Both the position numbers and the translations under genes were made by a program. The notes below the pieces were generated by a model that did not search any database, was not told where the DNA came from, and saw nothing but the letters and a program-made list of their open reading frames with translations. A stretch of 64,000 nt of DNA, taken from positions 621 to 64,620 of the forward strand of contig JANYGB010000063.1 of NCBI GenBank assembly GCA_025359445.1, written 5' to 3'. Source of the stretch: Sphingomonadaceae bacterium. GTDB taxonomy: Bacteria > Pseudomonadota > Alphaproteobacteria > Sphingomonadales > Sphingomonadaceae. Shown here piece after piece: positions 3 to 50,408 of this stretch; the stretch's first letter is position 1; each line of letters opens with the position of its first letter.

Positions 3-476
3 GAGCTCGATTACGACAAGCTCAGCCTTACGATCGAAACCGACGGCACGATCAGCCCCGAAGATGCCGTGGCCTATGCCGCGCGGATCCTGCAGGACCA
101 GCTGTCACTGTTCGTGCACTTCGAAGACGCGATGCCGGTGGGCGGTTCGCCGATGATCGGCATGGCCGCCGCGCCGAGCGAAGAAGGCGATACCAACCAG
201 CTCAACCGTTACCTGCTCAAGAAGGTCGACGAGCTCGAGCTGTCGGTGCGCAGCGCCAATTGCCTCAAGAACGACAACATCATCTACATCGGCGATCTGG
301 TCCAGAAGACCGAAGCCGAGATGCTGCGCACGCCCAACTTCGGCCGCAAGTCGCTTAACGAGATCAAGGAAGTGCTGTCCAGCATGGGTCTGCGCCTCGG
401 CATGGACATCCCCGGCTGGCCGCCCGAGAACATCGAAGAAATGGCCAAGAAGCTCGAGCAGGAACTGCTGGGTTAA
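3..476 (+). CDS. rpoA: RNA polymerase alpha subunit, C-terminal part (gene starts before the window)
   Basis: Alpha-CTD sequence [55 protein letters not shown]. Confidence 0.99.
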
Positions 477-874: not shown

Positions 875-1378
875 ATGCCCAAACCCACCCCCGCCGCCGC
901 GCCAGCGGAGGCCTCGATCCGCCGCGCGATCAACAACCAGACCAAGCTGATCCGCACCACCGGCAAGCGCTGGTCGGCGCGGGCAGAGGCAGCGTTCCTC
1001 GAAACGCTTGCCGCCACTGCCAATGTCTCCGCCGCGGCTGAGGCGGCGGGGTTCTCCACCACCGCGATCTACCGGCGGCGGCTCAACGATGCGCACTTCG
1101 CCGCGCGCTGGGCCGAGGCGATGGAGGTGGGCTACACCCGGCTCGAATGCCTGGCGATCGAAGCGGGCGCGGCGGCGCTGAGCGGGACCCCGCTTGGTGC
1201 CGGTAAGCCGCTCCCGCCCATGACCGCCGCCGACGTACTCAACCTGCTGCGGCTGCACCAGGCGGGGGTGCGCGGCGGACGAGCGCAGCGGTATGACTGG
1301 CGCAGGGCGGAGCCGGACATCGAGGATGTGCGCGCGGAGATACTGCGGCGGGTGGCGGTAATGGGGGGCAGCGCGTGA
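875..1378 (+). CDS. Terminase small subunit-like HTH protein (GTA/phage-like)
   Basis: Helical HTH-like core AFLETLAATANVSAAAEAAGFSTTAIYRRR..FAARWAEAMEVGYTRLE, typical of small proteins preceding large terminases in sphingomonads; same strand as the TerL at 4401. Confidence 0.6.
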   Translation: MPKPTPAAAPAEASIRRAINNQTKLIRTTGKRWSARAEAAFLETLAATANVSAAAEAAGFSTTAIYRRRLNDAHFAARWAEAMEVGYTRLECLAIEAGAAALSGTPLGAGKPLPPMTAADVLNLLRLHQAGVRGGRAQRYDWRRAEPDIEDVRAEILRRVAVMGGSA

Positions 1379-1522: not shown

Positions 1523-1996
1523 TTACGAAATTGTCGGCGATAGATGGGCGTGGCCGGTGTGGCTGTGATCATGTTTGTGCTCGTGCTGGTCACCGGGTTC
1601 TACGCCGACCAGATTCAGCATCACCGACCGTACTCCGCGTTCAGCGCGAACGCTGTCTGCAAACTGGTTGAGTGCCTTTGTCGTGCCCTTGAGCATGACT
1701 CCTTCCAGAGTGCTGCTGTGATCCAATTCGATGGATGTCGAGCAAGCGATCAAATCATGATGGGCGTGCTGCAAATCAGACAGCCGACTGGCGAGGCTGC
1801 GGACCCGGCGATCATAGATGTAAGACAAGTTGCCGACGCTGTATTTATGAACCGATTGAGCGCTGTTGAGACGGCTCATCGCCTCGCGCACTATGTCACG
1901 TATTCCCTCGGAGCGGCTTCGATAGCCGGTCGCGCCGAGGAACTCGTCCAGCGCCCCGGCTAAGGGATCATCGAGCGATATGGTAATTCGCGGCAT
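1523..1996 (-). CDS. nikR: NikR-family ribbon-helix-helix metalloregulator with atypical metal site and His-rich tail
   Basis: RITISLDD..GYRSRSEGIRD RHH domain, NikR C-terminal domain (QHAHHDL..LKG..FADSVRAERGVR), tail QHEHKHDHSHTGHAH; start set at ATG 1996. Confidence 0.85.
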   Translation of the reverse strand: MPRITISLDDPLAGALDEFLGATGYRSRSEGIRDIVREAMSRLNSAQSVHKYSVGNLSYIYDRRVRSLASRLSDLQHAHHDLIACSTSIELDHSSTLEGVMLKGTTKALNQFADSVRAERGVRSVMLNLVGVEPGDQHEHKHDHSHTGHAHLSPTIS

Positions 1997-2204
1997 TTGC
2001 GTTCGAGTCCTTCCTGCGCGGCCTTTGGTCAAGTTCATACAGCTGCCGAGGCCAAGCTCCAACTGAACTGCGCCTGATGCTGCCGAGGAAGCGCGACGGC
2101 GCGATTTCATAACTTAGTAAATATAATTATGCACCAAAGGCAACTTTTTCGAGCGCGCGGCGTATTTTGATTAGCCCCATCCGGTGAGGGCTAAGGAGCT
2201 GCTT

Positions 2205-4259
2205 ATGGGTAAATCCGTTTGGTCGTTGCCGTTGATCGCTTTGGCAACGCCAGCCTTCGCGCAGGAGCAGTTGCCGTCCCCGGAAAGCGAGCGGCCAGCG
2301 ATCATCGTCACTGGCTCGCGGATCAGCCAGCTTGGCGTTGCGGACAGCGCCAACGCTGGCGTTGTTACAACCGAACAACTTGCCGCCCGAACGGTCTATC
2401 GTCCCGGCGAACTGCTTGAGGTCACACCAGGGCTGATCGTCAGCCAGCACAGCGGCGAGGGCAAGGCCAACCAGTTCTATTTGCGCGGCTTCAACCTCGA
2501 TCACGGCACCGATCTGCGAACGACCGTCGACGGGATGCTGGTCAACCAACGCAGTCATAGCCACGGGCAGGGGTGGACCGATGTAAACTTCCTGATCCCT
2601 GAGCTTGCGGGCACGCTCGAATATCGCAAAGGCCCCTATTCAGCGCAGGACGGCGATTTTGCAGCTGCTGGTTCGGTGAGCGTAAACTACGTGAACACGC
2701 TCCCAGATACTCTGGTCAGTCTGGGGTTTGGCGAGAATGGCTATCGCCGGGCATTGATCGCGGGATCGCCAGCGGTAGCTGGAGGCCATCTGCTTTATGC
2801 GCTCGAGCTGTTTCACAACGATGGTCCGTTCACCAAAGGCGACAACTATCGCAAGATCAACGGAGTAGTGCGATATTCACACGGCTCGGCAGCGTCGGGC
2901 TTTAATATCACCGGAATGGCTTACGAAGCGAGCTACAATGCGACCGACCAGATCCCCAAGCGAACGGTGGACGCTGGCACGCTTGACCGGTTCAGTTCGA
3001 TCGACCCCACCGATGGGGGCAAAGTTCATCGCTACAGCCTGTCCGCCGCCTGGCATGGCACCACCGAGAACACGGCAACCAAGGTAAACGCTTACGTCAT
3101 CGATAACCGGCTCCGGATATACTCTAATTTCACGTACTTTCTCGACGACCCAGTCAACGGCGATCAGTTCGCTCAGCCCGATGACCGCACCAGTTTTGCG
3201 CTCAACGCAAGCCATGCGCGGCGCTTCACGCTGTTCGGCCGCCCCAGCGAAATCACATTCGGCATCCAGGGCCAAAGGGATGCGATCAGCAATGGCCTGC
3301 TGAATACCAGAGCGCGGCAAGAGCTCTCTGAAACCCGACGCGATCGCATCAGGGAAACCAGCGTCGGCGCGTATCTTGAAAATACGGTTCACTGGACGGA
3401 CACATTTCGAACGGTCGCGGGGCTGCGCGAGGATTACTACGAGTTCGATGTAAGAAGCTCTTTGGCCGCAAACTCCGGCAAGACGCACGCCGCACTGCTT
3501 AGCCCGAAACTGAGCCTGATTTTCGGGCCGTGGTCCAAGACCGAGTTTTACGTGAACGCTGGTGCCGGCTTTCACAGCAATGACGCGCGGGGCACTGTGA
3601 TCTCCGTCGATCCAAAAACCGGCGACCCCGCCGACCGCGTGCCTGGTCTGGTCCGGGCCAAGGGCGTCGAAGCCGGCATCCGCACCGAAATCGTGCCGCA
3701 CTTGCAAAGCACCTTGTCGGTTTATGGGCTCGATTTCGATTCCGAACTGATTTTTGCGGGCGATGCCGGAACCACATTTGCCGGGCGGCCAAGCAGAAGG
3801 GTCGGGATTGAGTTCTCGAATTACTACAAGCCCACGCACTGGCTCACCATAGACGCTGATCTTGCCTTCGCGCAGGCCAGGTTCCGCGACGCTGATCCAG
3901 TTGGTCGGCGCATACCGGGCGCGGTCGAAGGCGTGGCTTCAATCGCTCTGTCGGTTGCTGATCTGGGGCCTTACTTCGGTGCGCTGCAATTCCGCTATTT
4001 CGGGCCGCGTCCGCTGATCGAAGATAACAGCGTGCGATCGAAATCCACAGCAACGCTGAACGGCAGGTTAGGTTACAAGATAGGGCCGGGAACAACGATC
4101 GAGCTTGAGGGATTCAACTTGCTCGACGCGAAAAGCTCAGCAATTGACTATTACTATCAGTCGCGGCTGCCGAATGAGGGCCCGGACGGGCAGGATGACA
4201 TCCATTTTCACCCGATCGAATCCCGGTCAGTGCGCGTGAACCTGATCGCACATTTTTAG
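2205..4259 (+). CDS. TonB-dependent outer membrane receptor, probably for a divalent metal
   Basis: Signal peptide, IIVTGS TonB-box region, plug motif GKANQFYLRGFNLDHGTD, His motifs RSHSHGQG and DDIHFHP, C-terminal Phe; SD AAGGAG before ATG 2205; divergent from nikR. Confidence 0.92.
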   Translation: MGKSVWSLPLIALATPAFAQEQLPSPESERPAIIVTGSRISQLGVADSANAGVVTTEQLAARTVYRPGELLEVTPGLIVSQHSGEGKANQFYLRGFNLDHGTDLRTTVDGMLVNQRSHSHGQGWTDVNFLIPELAGTLEYRKGPYSAQDGDFAAAGSVSVNYVNTLPDTLVSLGFGENGYRRALIAGSPAVAGGHLLYALELFHNDGPFTKGDNYRKINGVVRYSHGSAASGFNITGMAYEASYNATDQIPKRTVDAGTLDRFSSIDPTDGGKVHRYSLSAAWHGTTENTATKVNAYVIDNRLRIYSNFTYFLDDPVNGDQFAQPDDRTSFALNASHARRFTLFGRPSEITFGIQGQRDAISNGLLNTRARQELSETRRDRIRETSVGAYLENTVHWTDTFRTVAGLREDYYEFDVRSSLAANSGKTHAALLSPKLSLIFGPWSKTEFYVNAGAGFHSNDARGTVISVDPKTGDPADRVPGLVRAKGVEAGIRTEIVPHLQSTLSVYGLDFDSELIFAGDAGTTFAGRPSRRVGIEFSNYYKPTHWLTIDADLAFAQARFRDADPVGRRIPGAVEGVASIALSVADLGPYFGALQFRYFGPRPLIEDNSVRSKSTATLNGRLGYKIGPGTTIELEGFNLLDAKSSAIDYYYQSRLPNEGPDGQDDIHFHPIESRSVRVNLIAHF

Positions 4260-4400: not shown

Positions 4401-5915
4401 GTGCCCATCATCCCCGAAATTCTCCGCAGCGCCGATCCTGCGTTGCGGGAGAGGATTGTCAGGTTTTTGCCCGAGGCGCAGTTGCGGGCTTTGGCACGCA
4501 GCTTTCCCGAGTGGGCGCATCTGGGGCAGCTTCCGCCCGTCTCGATCCCCACCGGCGGTGACTGGCGGACCTGGGTGATCATGGCCGGGCGCGGGTTTGG
4601 CAAGACGCGGGCGGGGGCGGAGTGGGTTTTGGACTGCGTGCGGGCCCACGCCCAAACTCGTCACCCCGGCGCAGGCCGGGGCCCAGCACGGAAAAAATTG
4701 CCACGAAGCGACGCTTGTTTGTTTGGTCTGGGTCCCGGCCTGCGCCGGGATGACGTGAGGGCAGGGGTGGGGGCGATCGAGAAGGGCGCGACTGGCGCAA
4801 GCCCCCTCCGTCAGCGCTCCGCACTGCCACCTCCCCCAGTGGGGGAAGATCTGAGAATAGCGCTGGTCGCCGCCACTGCTGACGAAGCCCGCGCTGTCAT
4901 GGTGGAGGGGCCGAGCGGCATCCTGGCTTGCGCGGGGCCGAACGAGATTGCCGACTGGTTGCCTTCGCGCGGGCTGCTCAAATTTGCCTCGGGGGCGGAG
5001 GCTACGCTCTATTCGGGGGCCTCGCCCAATGCCTTGCGCGGGCCGCAGCATCATTTTGCCTGGTGCGACGAGCTGGCGAAGTGGCGGCATCCGCTGTCGA
5101 CGTGGGACATGCTCCAGTTCGGGCTGCGCTGCGGTCCGGCTCCACGCGCGCTGGTCACGACCACCCCGCGCGGGGGCTGTGCGGCGTTGGCGGAGATTTT
5201 GGCCGCGCCCGATACGGTGCAAACCGGCGGGGCGAGCTCGGCCAATCCGCATCTGCCGCCCGCATTCCTATCTGCGGTGACCGTGCGCTATGGCGGGACG
5301 CGGCTGGGGCGCGAGGAGCTGGATGGCGAGTTTCTGAGCGAGATTGCGGGATCGCTGTGGCCGCTGGCTTTGCTCGATGCGAGCCGGGGGCCGATGCCTG
5401 CACCGGAGACCTTGCGCCGGGTGGTGGTCGCGGTCGATCCGCCGGCCAGCGCGGCGGGGACGTGCGGGATCGTGGCCTGCGGGCTCGATGCGGGCGGCGT
5501 GGCGCATGTGCTGGCGGATTGCTCGGCGGAAGGCTTGTCGCCGGAGGGCTGGGCGCGCGCGGTCGCGGCGGCGGCGGAGGCGTGGCAAGCCGACCGGGTG
5601 GTGGCGGAGAAGAACCAGGGCGGCGACATGGTCCGCTCGGTGTTGCGTGCGGCCGGGCTGGTCTTGCCGCTGACGCTCGTCTCGGCAACGCGCAGCAAAG
5701 TGCGGCGGGCCGAGCCGGTGGCGGGGCTGTTCGAAAGCGGACGGGCGCGGCTGGCGGGGCGCTTTCCCGAACTGGAGACGCAGCTTTCCGGGTTGGTGGC
5801 GGGCGGGGATTATATGGGGCCGGGCAAGTCGCCCGACCGCGCCGATGCGATGGTCTGGGCGCTGCACGCGCTGATGTTCGCCGCGCGCGGGCCGGTACGG
5901 GTCTCCCGGCCGTGA
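4401..5915 (+). CDS. Terminase large subunit (Terminase_6/RcGTA g2-like DNA packaging ATPase-nuclease) with in-frame repeat insertion
   Basis: Walker A GRGFGKT, Walker B FAWCDE, coupling motif VTTTP, nuclease motifs VVAVDPP, AEKNQGG and SPDRADA are all intact. Confidence 0.93.
   Translation: MPIIPEILRSADPALRERIVRFLPEAQLRALARSFPEWAHLGQLPPVSIPTGGDWRTWVIMAGRGFGKTRAGAEWVLDCVRAHAQTRHPGAGRGPARKKLPRSDACLFGLGPGLRRDDVRAGVGAIEKGATGASPLRQRSALPPPPVGEDLRIALVAATADEARAVMVEGPSGILACAGPNEIADWLPSRGLLKFASGAEATLYSGASPNALRGPQHHFAWCDELAKWRHPLSTWDMLQFGLRCGPAPRALVTTTPRGGCAALAEILAAPDTVQTGGASSANPHLPPAFLSAVTVRYGGTRLGREELDGEFLSEIAGSLWPLALLDASRGPMPAPETLRRVVVAVDPPASAAGTCGIVACGLDAGGVAHVLADCSAEGLSPEGWARAVAAAAEAWQADRVVAEKNQGGDMVRSVLRAAGLVLPLTLVSATRSKVRRAEPVAGLFESGRARLAGRFPELETQLSGLVAGGDYMGPGKSPDRADAMVWALHALMFAARGPVRVSRP
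4659..4755. repeat. CGTC-tagged palindromic element, subfamily 1, inside the terL reading frame
   Basis: Arms CGTCACCCCGGCGCAGGCCGGGGCCCAG and CTGGGTCCCGGCCTGCGCCGGGATGACG, same arms as intergenic copies at 10306, 43665 and 50306. Confidence 0.92.
4802..4850. repeat. Second short palindromic repeat unit inside terL
   Basis: CCCCTCCGTCAGC..GCCACCTCCCCCAGTGGGGGAAGAT ending in a TCCCCC-AGT-GGGGGA hairpin like the other repeat hairpins in the window. Confidence 0.6.
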
Positions 5916-6031: not shown

Positions 6032-6442
6032 ATGCGTCATAAAGTTGGCGGGCGTAAGCTCAATCGCACGACGTCTCACCGCAAGGCACTGTTTCGTAAC
6101 ATGGCCGCAGCACTGATCAAGCACGAGCAAATCACCACCACGCTGCCCAAGGCGCGCGAACTGCGCCCTTATGTCGAAAAGCTGATCACGCTGGCGAAGC
6201 ACGGCGGGCTGTCGAACCGCCGCCTGGCGCACGCCCGGCTGCTCGATGATGCGCAGCTGGTGAAGCTGTTCGATGTGCTGGCCGCGCGCTACGCCGACCG
6301 CGCCGGGGGCTATACCCGCGTGATCAAAGCCGGGATCCGCGCCGGTGACGCATCGCCGATGGCGGTGATCGAACTGGTCGAGCGCGATGTCGATGCCAAG
6401 GGCAAGGACTCGGGCCCGGTGTTCACCGCCGACGACGAATAA
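6032..6442 (+). CDS. rplQ: 50S ribosomal protein L17
   Basis: [52 protein letters not shown]. Confidence 0.99.
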
Positions 6443-9678: not shown

Positions 9679-9740
9679 TAGTCGTATCTGGAGGCAGGGT
9701 AGCGCGATTGAGCGCGCGGGCCTGCGTGGGGGGCATTACC

Positions 9741-10259
9741 TTGATTGGCAAGAGATCACGTCTGGCCGCAGTGCTGGCTACGGCCGCTGCGCTATCGCTG
9801 CCGGCGACGCCGGCCTTTGCACAAAGCTGGGGCTGGGGCGGCGGCGGCGATTGGGGCCACCATCGCCGCAGCCATGTCGACGCGGGCGATGTGCTGGCCG
9901 GCATCCTGATCATCGGCGGGATCGCCGCGATCGCCAGCGCCGCGAGCAGCAAGAAGCGCGATCGCCGCGACGACAATCGCCCCGATTATCCGGGCGACCG
10001 GACCAGCGGTTACGGCAATGACAACGATCAGCAGTGGAACCATCAGGGTCAACAGAACGGCGGCGTAGACAGTGCCGTCAACCGTTGCCTGGGCAAAGTC
10101 TCACGCGGCTCGAACCGGGGGAGCAGCGTTGAATCGATCAATTGTGATGGTGAGGGCTGGCAGGTGCAAGGCCGCACAGGTGCGGGCGCGGAGTTTTCGT
10201 GCTCGGTCGACGGCAACGGCCAGATTCGTAATGTGCAGGTGGATGGGCGGGCTTATTGA
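9741..10259 (+). CDS. Secreted protein, paralog of 9002-9622
   Basis: Signal peptide ending AFA, GDVLAGILIIGGIAAIASAA, C-terminal FSCSVDGNGQI; start uncertain (TTG 9741 or 9708). Confidence 0.8.
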   Translation: MIGKRSRLAAVLATAAALSLPATPAFAQSWGWGGGGDWGHHRRSHVDAGDVLAGILIIGGIAAIASAASSKKRDRRDDNRPDYPGDRTSGYGNDNDQQWNHQGQQNGGVDSAVNRCLGKVSRGSNRGSSVESINCDGEGWQVQGRTGAGAEFSCSVDGNGQIRNVQVDGRAY

Positions 10260-10305: not shown

Positions 10306-10406
10306 CGTCACCCCGGCGAAGCCGGCGCCCAGACCGCGCAAGCAACGACGCCGCTTGGCGGCGACGCTTTTTTCTGTACTGGGTCCCGGCCTGCGCCGGG
10401 ATGACG
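10306..10406. repeat. CGTC-tagged palindromic element, subfamily 1
   Basis: Arms CGTCACCCCGGCGAAGCCGGCGCCCAG and CTGGGTCCCGGCCTGCGCCGGGATGACG, between convergent genes. Confidence 0.9.
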
Positions 10407-10436: not shown

Positions 10437-11240
10437 TCAATGCAACCGTGATTTCGGGAACATCCAGCGCTGCGTTAGCCGGGCTTTAAACGGCTTCCAC
10501 GCGCCTTCGGGCTGTTTGAGCCGGTCGGCCAGCGCCACCATCACGCTGGGATTGACTCCCAGCCCGACGTGGCTGGCCATGACTACGATATTCTCGGTCT
10601 GATCGTTATCTGCTTGCGGGTGCTGGACCGAGCCGCGCCAATGAACGATCCCGTCGGTCTTGGTCAGGATTGAAGTGGTTGGCACCGGCGGGGCCTGATC
10701 GAGCCCGGTAAAATGCCCGTGCTTGACCGGCTCGGGTTCTTTGCCGTTAAGGTATTCGAACAACCGTGCCGCGTTGGTGTGGCGGCGATCGTCGTGGATC
10801 GGGCTACCCAGAGAGATGACCTGACGCACTGCACCGGGGTGCAGTTTGGCCAGTTCGCGCGCAAATACGCCGCCCAGGCTCCACCCGACGATTGAAACCT
10901 TGCGGCCACTCTCGCGGTAAATTTTGAGCAGCAGCGCTTCCATTTCGTGAACCCGCTGCAGATCGACCCGCACGTTGCGGCCCAGGTCCCAGCCGTAGCT
11001 GGCGTAACCCAGATCATCGAGCAACCGGCGCATTGGCTTGGTCGAGCTGTCAGAGGCCATGAACCCGGGCAGCACCAGCACCGGATGCCCGTCGCCCTTG
11101 GGCAGCAGGCCGAGGACAGGGCGGGTGGCGATGAACGCCGCCAGTTCGAACACGGCGCGCACCTCAGCCAAGGCGAGCAGGCCGTGCGGCGGGCGCGCTT
11201 CGATTTCAAGCGCGTCGCGTGAAGCGGTGGTTGCAGTCAT
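10437..11240 (-). CDS. Alpha/beta hydrolase (lipase/esterase-like)
   Basis: PVLVLPGF oxyanion region, GWSLGG nucleophile elbow, SHVGLG; overlaps the WS/DGAT stop codon. Confidence 0.9.
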   Translation of the reverse strand: MTATTASRDALEIEARPPHGLLALAEVRAVFELAAFIATRPVLGLLPKGDGHPVLVLPGFMASDSSTKPMRRLLDDLGYASYGWDLGRNVRVDLQRVHEMEALLLKIYRESGRKVSIVGWSLGGVFARELAKLHPGAVRQVISLGSPIHDDRRHTNAARLFEYLNGKEPEPVKHGHFTGLDQAPPVPTTSILTKTDGIVHWRGSVQHPQADNDQTENIVVMASHVGLGVNPSVMVALADRLKQPEGAWKPFKARLTQRWMFPKSRLH

Positions 11241-42127: not shown

Positions 42128-43120
42128 ATGACCGACATTCCAAACACGCAGCCAGGCACAGCCTCGGACACCATCCTGCCCGCACCAGACCGCACGGTTT
42201 CAGTGCGTGAGCTGTTCGGGATCGATGTCGACATGATGGTTCCGGCCTTTTCTCAGGCCGACGAACGCGTGCCCGATAGCGATGGCAGCTATGTGTTCGA
42301 TCCCGATACCACGCTGGCGATCCTGGCGGGCTTTGCCCACAATCGGCGCGTGATGGTCCAGGGTTATCACGGTACCGGCAAGTCGACTCACATCGAACAG
42401 GTCGCCGCCCGGCTCAACTGGCCGTGCATCCGCATCAACCTGGATGCCCACATCAGCCGGATCGACCTGATCGGCCGCGATGCGATTGTGCTGCGCGACG
42501 GTCTGCAGGTTACCGAATTTCGCGAAGGCCTGCTGCCGTGGGCATTGCAGCATCCGGTCGCGCTGGTGTTTGACGAATACGATGCCGGCCGCCCCGACGT
42601 GATGTTCGTGATCCAGCGCGTGCTGGAAACTGAGGGCAAGCTCACTTTGCTCGATCAGAACCGCGTAATCCGGCCCAATCCGTTTTTCCGCCTGTTCGCC
42701 ACCGCCAATACGGTTGGCCTGGGTGATACCAGTGGGCTGTATCACGGCACCCAGGCGATCAATCAGGGCCAGATGGACCGCTGGAATATCGTCGTCGGGC
42801 TGAACTACCTGCCCGCTGCGGTCGAATGCGAGATTGTGCTGGGCAAGTCCGACGGCGCGTCTGCAGAACTGGTCAGCAAAATGGTCAAGGTCGCCGATCT
42901 GACCCGGCAAGGCTTCATCAATGGCGATATCAGCACCGTGATGAGCCCGCGCACCGTGATGACCTGGGCGCAAAACACCGCGATCTTCAAAGACCCCGGA
43001 TTCGCCTTCCGCCTCTCGTTCCTTAACAAGTGCGACGAGACCGAGCGGATGCTGGTCGCGGAATATTATCAGCGCGTGTTCGGCACTGACTTGCCCGAAA
43101 GCGTTGTAGGCAAGGCATGA
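42128..43120 (+). CDS. cobS: Cobaltochelatase subunit CobS-like AAA+ ATPase
   Basis: [39 protein letters not shown]; start set at ATG 42128. Confidence 0.95.
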
Positions 43121-43629
43121 TGCTGCTGCGCCTGGCCGCGGCGTTGATGCTGGCGCTAGGCGTGGGGCAAGCGGGTGTGCTCGCAGCTCCCGATGCAACG
43201 CCCGTCGCCGTAGCGCCAAAGGTACTTTATTACCCGGTTGATGCCGACGGAGCCAAGGCGCTTGAACTGGCGCTGGCTCATGCTGCCGCCAGCAAGGCCG
43301 ACGCGGTGATCGTGTTTGGCGCGGACTGGTGCCATGATAGCCGTTCCCTCGCACAGGTGTTGAGGTCGGATGCGTTCAGAGCCGAATTCGGCACGCGATT
43401 TGAAGTGACCTTTATCGATGTTGGCCGGCCGCAGACCGGTGAGGGGCGCAATCTCGATCTGGTCAAGCGCCTCGGGGTGAAGAACCTTAAGAGCACGCCG
43501 GCGATGTTCGTGCTGCGCGGCGACGGCAAAGTGCTCAACGGCAAAAAGGACGCTGTTAGCTGGCGCAATGCCGAAAGCCGGGGGGCGGACAAGGTGCTGG
43601 CGTGGTTCCGCGGGTTCGATAAGAAATGA
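43117..43629 (+). CDS. Exported thioredoxin-fold protein
   Basis: Signal peptide, FGADWCHDS single-Cys thioredoxin motif, STPAMFVL. Confidence 0.8.
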
Positions 43630-43664: not shown

Positions 43665-43767
43665 CGTCATCCCGGCGAAGGCCGGGACCCAGTCCAAACA
43701 AGAAAACAGCGACGCTTCGCGGATTCATGGGCAGAAGTGCTGGGTCCCGGTCTTCCCCGGGATGACG
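43665..43767. repeat. CGTC-tagged palindromic element, subfamily 1
   Basis: Arms CGTCATCCCGGCGAAGGCCGGGACCCAG and CTGGGTCCCGGTCTTCCCCGGGATGACG. Confidence 0.9.
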
Positions 43768-43802: not shown

Positions 43803-44360
43803 TTACTCCCCCTCCCAGCCATTAAGCAGGTCCGAAAACTCATCCGCGTGCTCTTCTTCCTGCTCGAGGATGTGCATCAGCAGCTTCTTGGTGGTGGTGT
43901 CGCGGTCGCCAACATAGTCGATCAGCTCGCGGTATGAATCGATCGCGATGCGTTCGGCCACCAGGTCTTCCTTGACCATATCCTTGAGCGTCTTGCCCTC
44001 ACGGTATTCGGCGTGGCTCAGCTTGCTCAGATGATCGGGGTTGAGATCGGGTTCGCCGCCCAATTGCACGATCCGCTCAGCCAGCATCATCGCGTGCGCT
44101 TGTTCGGCGTTGGCGTGTTCCAGGAAATGCGCCTTGATCGGCTCCGAAACGAGGCCCGTCGCGGTATGGTAATGGCGCAGATAGCGCAGCACGCAGACCC
44201 ATTCGGTGGCGAGCGATTCTTGCAGCTTGCCGACGATCACCTCGCGGTCGGCGGGGTAGCTCTTGGTGACCGCGCCGTCTTCGATGTGCTTGCGCGCCTG
44301 CGCGCGCAAGGTGGCGACGTCGGTAAAGTTCTTGTCGGCAGGTTTCGCGGCGGTCGCCAT
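43803..44360 (-). CDS. Ferritin-like protein (bacterioferritin/DpsL-like)
   Basis: Di-iron ligand pattern ATEW..EHANAEQAH..EDLVAERIAI..EEEHAD. Confidence 0.9.
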   Translation of the reverse strand: MATAAKPADKNFTDVATLRAQARKHIEDGAVTKSYPADREVIVGKLQESLATEWVCVLRYLRHYHTATGLVSEPIKAHFLEHANAEQAHAMMLAERIVQLGGEPDLNPDHLSKLSHAEYREGKTLKDMVKEDLVAERIAIDSYRELIDYVGDRDTTTKKLLMHILEQEEEHADEFSDLLNGWEGE

Positions 44361-48943: not shown

Positions 48944-50299
48944 ATGACTGCAACCACATTCATCGTTTTGCTGTTGGCGCTCGCCTGCGGGCTTGGCCTG
49001 GGCTGGCTGTTCGGATCGCGTCCGGCGGCGGATTTGCGCGTGCAGCTGACGGCGAGCGAGGCTCAGGGCAAGGACCTTGACGCGCAGTTCCGCAAGGCAA
49101 TCGCGGAACTGGGTTATGCCCAGATCAAACTGGCGACGCTGGCGGCCAATGCGGCCAATTTTGAGGAGCAGAAGGCTGGGCTGCTAGTTGCGCAGGAAAG
49201 CCTCAAGGCCGAATTTCAGGCTGCCGGAGCGAAGATACTCGCGCAAGCGCAGGAAACTTTGCTCGCCCGCGCGCAGGAGCGGTTCACCCAGTCCGAAGAG
49301 AAGAGCGCTGAGCGGCTGAAGTCGCTGCTCGCGCCGGTCGATCAGCGGCTCAAGGCTTATGAGGAACAAGTCACCAGCCTTGAAAAGCAGCGGGTCGAGG
49401 GGTTCAGCCAGCTTGCCGGCGTAATCGAGGAAGTGCGCAAGGGTCAGGAAGAGGTCAAGCGTGAGGCGGCGCGGCTGGGCAATTCGCTGACGAATGCGCC
49501 CAAAGCAAGGGGCCGCTGGGGCGAGCGCGCGCTGCAGAATGTGCTCGAACAATGCGGGCTGTCGCAGCACACCGATTTCAATCTCGAACACTCGCTGGAA
49601 ACCGACGAGGGACGGCTGCGCCCCGATGCGATCGTCCGCATTCCCGGCCAGAAGATGCTGGTGATCGACGCCAAGGTGTCCTTGAATGCCTACCAGGCCG
49701 CGTTCGAAGCGGGCGACGATGAGACCCGCAAGCGCAATCTTGATCTGCACGCCCGCTCGATGCGGAACCACGTTCAGACGCTCGGTGCCAAGTCGTACCA
49801 GAGCCAGTTCGACGAAGCGCCGGACTATGTGGTGATGTTTGTGCCGGGCGAGCATTTCGTCGCCGCGGCGCTGGAAAACGATCCCGAACTTTGGGACTTT
49901 GCCTTTCACAACAAGGTGTTGCTGGCCACTCCAACCAATCTGGTTGCGATTGCCCGGACCGTGGCGATGGTCTGGCAGCAGGACCAGCTGGCCCGTGAGG
50001 CAATCGAGATCGGCAAGGCGGGAGCCGAACTGTACGACCGGCTCGCCGTGGCGGCCGAACACCTCAAGGGCGTGGGCGCGGGGCTCGATCGGGCCGTGCG
50101 CAAGTACAACGATTTCGTCGGCAGCTTTGAACGCAACGTGCTGACCTCGGGCCGCCGGCTCAAGGACAAGGGCATCGCCATCGGCAAGCGCGAGATCGAG
50201 GAAGTCCCGGTCATTGACAGCCTGCCGCGCCATTCGAGCAGTAATGACGCAGCGCTATTGCTGCAGGGCGATACGGATGAGGCAGAGGTGGCGGAGTAG
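48944..50299 (+). CDS. rmuC: DNA recombination protein RmuC
   Basis: N-terminal TM plus coiled coil, RGRWGE, LRPDAIV, VIDAK, MFVPGE, ATPTNL. Confidence 0.96.
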   Translation: MTATTFIVLLLALACGLGLGWLFGSRPAADLRVQLTASEAQGKDLDAQFRKAIAELGYAQIKLATLAANAANFEEQKAGLLVAQESLKAEFQAAGAKILAQAQETLLARAQERFTQSEEKSAERLKSLLAPVDQRLKAYEEQVTSLEKQRVEGFSQLAGVIEEVRKGQEEVKREAARLGNSLTNAPKARGRWGERALQNVLEQCGLSQHTDFNLEHSLETDEGRLRPDAIVRIPGQKMLVIDAKVSLNAYQAAFEAGDDETRKRNLDLHARSMRNHVQTLGAKSYQSQFDEAPDYVVMFVPGEHFVAAALENDPELWDFAFHNKVLLATPTNLVAIARTVAMVWQQDQLAREAIEIGKAGAELYDRLAVAAEHLKGVGAGLDRAVRKYNDFVGSFERNVLTSGRRLKDKGIAIGKREIEEVPVIDSLPRHSSSNDAALLLQGDTDEAEVAE

Positions 50300-50305
50300 C
50301 CAGTT

Positions 50306-50408
50306 CGTCACCCCGGCGAAGGCTGGGGCCCAGACCTTGCGAGCAATCGACGTCGCATTGCGACGACATTATTTTTTGTGCTGGGCCCCGGCCTGCGCCG
50401 GGGTGACG
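50306..50408. repeat. CGTC-tagged palindromic element, subfamily 1
   Basis: Arms CGTCACCCCGGCGAAGGCTGGGGCCCAG and CTGGGCCCCGGCCTGCGCCGGGGTGACG. Confidence 0.9.

Follow-up and report, generated by a model that had tools for sequence, protein, structure and literature searches.

The window analysed here is a stretch of 64,000 nucleotides (contig JANYGB010000063.1) from an uncultured sphingomonad, whose metagenome-assembled genome (MAG) was obtained from rock and sediment metagenomes (2.96 Mb, 63% GC, 71 contigs, 99.7% complete). It carries an orphan large terminase (TerL) gene of the gene transfer agent (GTA) type, and two palindromic repeats, here called T1 and T2, lie in frame within the part of this gene that encodes the ATPase domain. 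The distance from GKT of the Walker A motif to the conserved RIALV strand is 83 residues, versus 18 in short-loop homologues. The 65 extra residues, about the number given by an earlier sequence-only reading, are probably selfish DNA that is tolerated by the protein in a hotspot loop.

The TerL open reading frame (ORF; Table 1) matches Terminase_6N (E=5.6e-15) and Terminase_6C (E=5.7e-19). The AlphaFold2 (AF2) model, calculated from an alignment of 98 sequences, has a mean pLDDT (predicted local distance difference test score) of 83.8 and resembles the large terminases T4 gp17, D6E, Sf6 gp2 and HK97. The Walker A motif, the D223-E224 pair, the TTTP coupling motif at residues 253-256 and the acidic residues of the nuclease are invariant in the 98 homologues. 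The protein has an ASCE ATPase with Walker A and B and a coupling motif, together with an RNase H-like nuclease domain, as in other members of the TerL family. Preservation of the frame and of the downstream catalytic motifs, which the sequence-only reading had claimed, is borne out by this invariance.

Short-loop homologues have only 5-6 residues between VR and RIALV, and almost all relatives align to the TerL of the window in two pieces, skipping residues 84-149. In the AF2 model, residues 93-140, between the helix of residues 70-87 and the strand of residues 152-157, have pLDDT values below 50; the remainder is confident. The insert is thus predicted to form a disordered surface loop on the ATPase domain, the outcome sought from a structure prediction in the sequence-only reading.

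The insert does not stem from misassembly. In four metagenome runs, Logan unitigs at the depth of the organism cover 4603-4688 (left flank into the arm of T1), 4660-4754 (centre) and 4726-5364 (arm into downstream TerL). Three other assemblies contain this insertion as well, again with this centre. No "empty" allele of the population was seen in the unitigs; the sole joint, 4685>4729 (depth 2.6), is either a collapse of the palindrome or another copy.

Anatomy of the two repeats

T1 is an inverted dimer of hairpin units of the repetitive extragenic palindrome (REP) type. Its arms are 28 nt long, 93% complementary and 41 nt apart, and the arm occurs six times in the window versus 0 expected (100 shuffles). 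The inverted-repeat and copy searches confirmed what had been read from the sequence, namely a full CGTC-tagged element at this site with three further window copies outside genes. Genome-wide, there are 22 full copies (96-105 bp) next to about nine solo arms; dimers thus predominate. Over 53 arms, positions 1-4 are CGTC in 50-52, positions 6-12 pair with positions 17-23 (seven Watson-Crick pairs, with A.C at 5:24), the loop is G[C/A]AG and the tail is CCCAG. The stem pair 6:23 covaries, being T-A in 33 arms and C-G in 16. As RNA, T1 folds into a single hairpin of about 45 bp at -69.1 kcal/mol (z = -7.9). Judged by this anatomy, T1 is assigned to the CGTC-1 REP family of Di Nocera et al. (2013; PMC3733652).

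Target-site duplications were sought in the flanks of the 22 T1 copies and none was found. T1 therefore has 28-nt inverted termini without the duplication expected of a miniature inverted-repeat transposable element. A search of the genome for the Y1_Tnp/RAYT domain (PF01797) gave no match, with control genomes positive; other transposase families were not searched. Both negatives fit the published statement that CGTC REPs are without a dedicated transposase.

Full T2 is a palindromic element of about 120 bp (ATCCTCCCCnnnnGGGGGAGGTGGC ... CCCCCACCGTCAGCGCnnnnGCGCTGCCACCTCCCCCnnnGGGGGAGGAT), present at 20 loci or more in the genome (blastn, nhmmer). An nhmmer profile of seven genomic copies matches the intact end of the remnant in TerL (E=6e-11) at model positions 64-121 only. 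Because the match is confined to these positions, the segment 4796-4853 is the right half of T2, and the second repeat unit that had been noticed at 4802-4850 is real. This half folds no better than shuffled sequences (z = +0.6); it is therefore a remnant and not a working hairpin. In the homologue L003, a full T2-type element occupies the same place in TerL.

Table 1. Coordinates of the TerL gene, its repeats, neighbouring genes and further repeat copies (window coordinates unless a contig of the genome is given)
Feature	Coordinates	Strand	Remarks
Orphan GTA-type TerL ORF	4401..5915	+	Stop included; 504 aa; Pfam-type domain matches
Walker A codons G63-R-G-F-G-K-T69	4587..4607	+	Invariant, 98 homologues
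Post-Walker-A helix, residues 70-87	4608..4661	+	DSSP on AF2 model; insert begins at C-terminal end of helix
T1	4659..4755	+	Head-to-head dimer of CGTC-1-type REP hairpins, 97 bp, read as RHPGAGRGPARKKLPRSDACLFGLGPGLRRDD
T1 left arm	4659..4686	+	CGTC tag, 7-8-bp stem, 4-nt loop GCAG, CCA tail
T1 centre	4687..4727	+	A-run, small hairpin, T-rich run; copy-specific
T1 right arm	4728..4755	-	Reverse-complement REP unit
T2 remnant	4756..4853	+	Read as VRAGVGAIEKGATGASPLRQRSALPPPPVGEDL; degraded left part (GGGGTGGGGG...), then intact right half 4796-4853
Strand R152-IALVAAT159	4854..4877	+	Conserved ATPase core resumes; homologue alignment and AF2 model
Walker B Asp and catalytic Glu (D223-E224)	5067..5072	+	Invariant
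T1 copy	10306..10406		Between convergent ORF ends 9708..10259 (+) / 10437..11240 (-); left arm with indel
T1 copy	43665..43767		Between convergent ORF ends 43117..43629 (+) / 43803..44360 (-)
T1 copy	50306..50408		7 nt past stop of ORF 48944..50299
rpoA 3' end	3..476		
167-aa ORF	875..1378		No Pfam match
NikR	1523..2110	-	Looks inserted in orphan terminase module
TonB receptor	2184..4259		Looks inserted in orphan terminase module
rplQ	6032..6442		Directly downstream of TerL
T1 in isoleucyl-tRNA synthetase (IleRS)	G000:C58:10746-10845		In frame, read RHPGEGRDP...GLGPGLRRGD
T1 in SufC	G000:C51:34941-35040		In frame, read RHPGEGRDP...GLGPGLRRGD
T2 in ImuB-like Y-family polymerase	G000:C56:25419-25540		In frame
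Degraded cluster-type GTA genes (L058)	G000:C30:32562-34731		

The loop across TerL homologues

A tree of 102 TerLs was built without the loop; the orphan clade comprises 92 rows (SH-aLRT 100). About 55 of these 92 homologues have repeat-derived loops at this position. In basal members (Sphingomonas and others), the loop is 18-19 residues long. Short-loop copies also occur in the cultured Sphingomonas kyeonggiensis, S. psychrotolerans and Sphingobium xanthum. Within a subclade of 70 rows, the loop of most members is 30-93 residues long and consists of recognisable repeat peptides, which fall into at least four families: T1 (RHPG.GRGP...GLGPGLRRDD), T2-like (SP.R.G.GVG...HP.PLP.AGGE / PPPPVGED), a third (SSPRRGGGPA...VPLHH...GPPPRAGEE) and a fourth (SPSILRQAQDER / SFDRLRTSG). 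Since these classes come from peptide regular expressions and are rough, with 21 loops left as "other", the tree statistic uses loop length only: the long or short state changed at least 15 times.

Different families are found in the sister pairs P0011 and L002, P0013 and P0016 (L016-type), P0002 and P0003, and the window and L003. The window lineage, L002 and P0013 each acquired a T1-type dimer by a separate insertion, three in all. The states sampled by the loop are empty, single terminal hairpin, full dimer (L003) and nested. The terminal hairpin alone, TCCTCCCCGAAGGGGGAGGA, is seen in L004 (peptide SSPKGED), P0024 and others. In the nested loops of the window, P0013 and P0003, the newer element supplants the left part of the resident one, and the right half is kept. 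This arrangement suggests that a new element enters at the resident hairpin. On sequence comparison, the TerL loop shows itself as a hotspot of gain, nesting, halving and loss of repeats. The proposal of a tolerated insertion hotspot in the sequence-only reading holds: repeat-free homologues have a short loop, others have independent insertions from the four or more families, and sister lineages differ.

The longest loop observed, 100 residues and in frame, belongs to L090 (Sphingomonadaceae MAG JBHJHL010000039.1). It consists of APQDER-type and HPNPSPEGEG-type repeats and a tandem duplication (GEGLGKMRNP[S/A]RIESVAGAEG twice).

Reading frame, selection and gene calls

For an unbiased view of the frame, species representatives of GTDB were retrieved with the 353 C-terminal residues downstream of the insert, so that the sample was blind to the insert state. 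All ten long inserts in it (44-100 residues) were in frame and stop-free. Two copies were broken: L066 is truncated at the 5' end and has lost Walker A, and L096, a short-loop copy, has a frameshift at the RIALV strand. It should also be mentioned that L004/L085 (G004:C5) has a +1 frameshift at RHPLA/TWDMLQ; since this assembly is 83% complete in about 10 contigs, a long-read error may be the cause.

The public gene call for TerL of the window (P0004, 382 aa) starts past the insert and lacks Walker A. The calls P0010 (L060), P0017 (L062) and P0051 (L061) likewise start past the insert, and all three loci are open through the repeat to Walker A. The lack of Walker A in these TerL calls is an annotation artefact caused by the repeat.

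The ratio of nonsynonymous to synonymous substitution (dN/dS, Nei-Gojobori) was 0.14-0.32 for the core of four close copies, 0.10-0.30 for the ATPase core alone between insert-bearing lineages, and 0.20 for the core between T1-sharing lineages. The value for the insert was about 0.9. Because TerL is under purifying selection, the gene is not a pseudogene collecting repeats, a possibility that the sequence-only reading had itself raised. The gene is probably still read through the insert.

The same repeats in other genes of the genome

In this genome, T1 also lies within the genes for IleRS and SufC, and T2 within that for an ImuB-like polymerase (Table 1). The frame used by T1 is identical in TerL, IleRS, SufC and two other TerL lineages (RHPG.GR.P...GLGPGLRR.D). 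Most congeners have empty sites at these positions of the housekeeping genes. In some, the very same positions are taken by another CGTC-ended element (RQPVLDTGLGFSS...APDQVRGD) or by a third family. Comparison of the filled with the empty SufC and IleRS alleles did not give clean insertions. The insertion sites in the housekeeping genes are thus hotspots as well.

Remnants of the GTA cluster

The cluster-type TerL of the genome has an in-frame TAG (G000:C30, 32676-32678) where relatives have Trp, and this stop was confirmed in independent Logan unitigs. In the next ORF, only the first 93 profile positions of the portal are left, joined to DUF2793. An HK97 capsid gene, present in 32 of 41 relatives, is missing from this genome.

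The claim that the repeats create new protein sequence in a packaging motor holds in part. An in-frame, repeat-derived loop is indeed indicated by the sequence. The role as packaging motor is not established, because the gene is an orphan copy in a genome with no capsid gene, with only a portal fragment and with a stop codon in the cluster-type TerL.

Explanation of the insert

T2 (about 120 bp) occupies the loop joining the post-Walker-A helix to the next core strand, with T1 at the position where the left terminal hairpin of T2 would be. In the explanation that we consider probable, the 65 extra residues are selfish DNA tolerated by the protein. The full T2-type element of L003 suggests that T2 came first, and that T1 later inserted into the left end of T2 or displaced that end. 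The gene would be read through, and the repeats would become a disordered surface loop, in line with the conservation of the frame and the selection on the core. Read-through is proposed on two grounds: the frame of the repeats has no stops and is rich in Gly, Pro and Arg, and their total length remains divisible by three. The hotspot itself might result from a structurally permissive loop, combined with a preference of the palindromes to land in or beside an existing hairpin.

Several observations weigh against this explanation. Orthologous T1 elements with a shared centre are present in four lineages (the window, L055, L060 and L062), and the 2-6 differences between them are all in the 41-nt centre. 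Both arms are identical (0 of 56 nt different) in all six pairs of these lineages. In the same four lineages, the TerL core differs by 9-16% and the third codon positions by 19-30%; the adjacent T2 remnant and the upstream flank have strongly diverged. The identity of the arms exceeds the expectation for a neutral passenger; it might be due to selection on the hairpin, gene conversion or recent recombination. Furthermore, none of the 26 cluster-type GTA TerLs examined has a repeat in the equivalent loop; therefore, structural tolerance alone does not explain the hotspot. Neither a target-site duplication at the 22 copies nor a Y1 transposase was found that could account for the insertion of T1. 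This orphan TerL stands in a genome without head genes. Finally, a search of RNA-seq runs found only DNA metagenomes with this sequence.

The near-identical block shared with L055 extends over 4567-4776. Its upstream part coincides with the Walker A region, and conservation there is common to all four close orphan-clade copies aligned (L001-L004). The DNA of Walker A and the next helix (4567-4658) is near-identical in L001-L004 even at synonymous sites, although dS elsewhere is 0.5-0.6.

The conserved arms bring in the view that T1 is a functional nucleic-acid element, which acts as a hairpin in DNA or mRNA and of which the peptide is a by-product. An mRNA hairpin that tunes translation was the alternative offered in the sequence-only reading. 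We regard this view as rather unlikely. The hairpin might pause ribosomes, attenuate transcription into TerL and rplQ, or serve as a processing or protein-binding site. A more specific form, doubtful to the same degree, is that the hairpin is maintained for its nucleotide sequence. As a duplex of about 45 bp in mRNA or DNA, it would control how the orphan terminase is expressed, and perhaps also read-through into rplQ; turnover of the loop would be repeated recruitment of hairpins rather than tolerance alone. The strong fold of T1, the covariation in its stem among copies, the invariant arms beside a diverged T2 remnant and variable third codon positions, the terminator-like placement of intergenic copies at convergent gene ends and the position of the gene directly upstream of rplQ are all in its favour. 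However, sister lineages have wholly different repeats or none at this place, which means that no particular structure is required. The long stem is not followed by a U-tract, and the only match of a terminator scan was weak, antisense and in the T1 centre. All matches of an Rfam scan of 4550-4950 were below threshold, to plant and viral miRNA-precursor models that stand for long hairpins in general. The arms could also have been conserved by recent recombination or by gene conversion between copies.

It is also unlikely that the gene is decaying, with the repeats in a jobless orphan TerL as the first stage of pseudogenisation. The loss of the capsid gene, the portal fragment fused to DUF2793 and the TAG in the cluster-type TerL would agree with such decay, as would the broken relatives G004 (+1 frameshift), L066 (5' part missing) and L096 (frameshift) and the source's own gene call, which begins after the insert. 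The frame of 504 residues is nevertheless intact with all catalytic residues kept, dN/dS is 0.10-0.20 in comparisons with the insert-bearing L003 and L055, and every long insert is in frame. Moreover, the inserts do not track loss of the GTA, because the insert-bearing G008 and G010 retain capsid genes; G004 has a capsid gene but no long insert. An adaptive role, in which the repeat-encoded loop is a new interaction surface of TerL, seems very unlikely. The predicted position on the surface of the ATPase domain and the use of one frame in TerL, IleRS, SufC and two other TerL lineages would suit it. The dN/dS of about 0.9 and pLDDT below 50 of the insert, the fast turnover between unrelated repeat families and the presence of the same peptide in unrelated housekeeping enzymes argue against it. 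That a repeat was misjoined into the gene during assembly is hardly conceivable: the source is a MAG and word depth rises over the repeat, but unitigs in four runs span the junctions and the centre, three independent assemblies have the same insertion and centre, and both flanks are TerL, in frame.

One loop of one enzyme family samples dozens of repeat-derived peptides while the core is under purifying selection throughout, which places it among the clearest natural experiments on the passage of selfish DNA into protein. Since gene callers cut such genes at the repeat, surveys of terminases and GTAs in sphingomonads will miscount "truncated" TerLs. Two questions are raised, namely the role of an orphan TerL beside rplQ without head genes, and the reason why repeats enter the orphan and not the cluster copy.

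Comparison with known systems

CGTC-1 REPs have a CGTC tag, a stem of about 8 bp, a 4-nt loop and a CCA tail (Di Nocera, De Gregorio and Rocco 2013, BMC Genomics 14:522, PMC3733652). Head-to-head dimers predominate, mostly just downstream of convergent or co-directional ORFs, and no dedicated transposase is known (PMC3733652). T1 agrees in its tag, in its stem, loop and tail, in the predominance of dimers and in the placement downstream of ORFs, which was checked for the window copies. In-frame CGTC dimers have been described inside sphingomonad genes (S. wittichii, S. alaskensis and E. litoralis), including those for tRNA synthetases and dnaE2; they encode RHPG...GDRGD and VIPAKAG...IPAFAGMT (PMC3733652). 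Intragenic CGTC REP dimers in sphingomonads are thus already published, and the TerL case is a clear further example and not new biology. The published gene list differs in being without terminase and SufC (PMC3733652). In addition, recurrence at the same site was published only for recB of Xanthomonas (PMC3733652), whereas at least four families, nesting and at least 15 changes over about 90 homologues are found here.

The Rickettsia palindromic elements (RPE; Ogata et al. 2000) are in-frame palindromic repeats in unrelated housekeeping genes, and their peptides are thought to be compatible with the fold (PMC10969869, PMC3733652). Comparison with them, made in the sequence-only reading, is apt: RPE-4 and RPE-6 are themselves CGTC REPs (PMC3733652). 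As with RPE, the copies here are in frame in unrelated genes (TerL, IleRS, SufC and the ImuB-like gene), and the TerL peptide is predicted to lie in a permissive surface loop. The differences are the host, a free-living soil or rock sphingomonad, the other repeat sequence families, and the lower density, with 3 of 22 T1 copies intragenic versus dozens of RPE insertions.

The REPIN/RAYT system consists of REP doublets mobilised by a Y1 transposase. T1 resembles a REPIN in that two inverted REP units and a spacer make one hairpin of about 100 nt. It differs in the tag, which is CGTC and not GTAG, and in that no Y1_Tnp (PF01797) gene was found in the genome.

Compared with g2, the TerL gene of RcGTA-type clusters, the orphan shares Terminase_6N/6C, the Walker A motif AGRGFGKT and a position as sister group to cluster-type TerL. 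It differs in lying outside a head-tail cluster, between rpoA and rplQ, and in forming a distinct clade at about 55% identity to cluster-type copies. Its neighbours are a TonB receptor and rplQ, and not the portal, protease and capsid genes of an RcGTA-like cluster.

Neighbourhood and distribution of the orphan terminase

In the window, the rpoA 3' end is followed by the 167-aa ORF, NikR, the TonB receptor, TerL and rplQ. Of 200 evenly drawn Sphingomonadales genomes, only about 3 have an orphan TerL copy with an identity of at least 58% (at least 64% in two). The sister group of the orphan clade consists of the cluster-type GTA TerLs from the same genus. The position of TerL directly upstream of rplQ is kept in other assemblies (several MAGs and Sphingomonas sp. 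HF-S4), and the cargo upstream varies. In relatives, this cargo includes restriction-modification genes, kinases and others.

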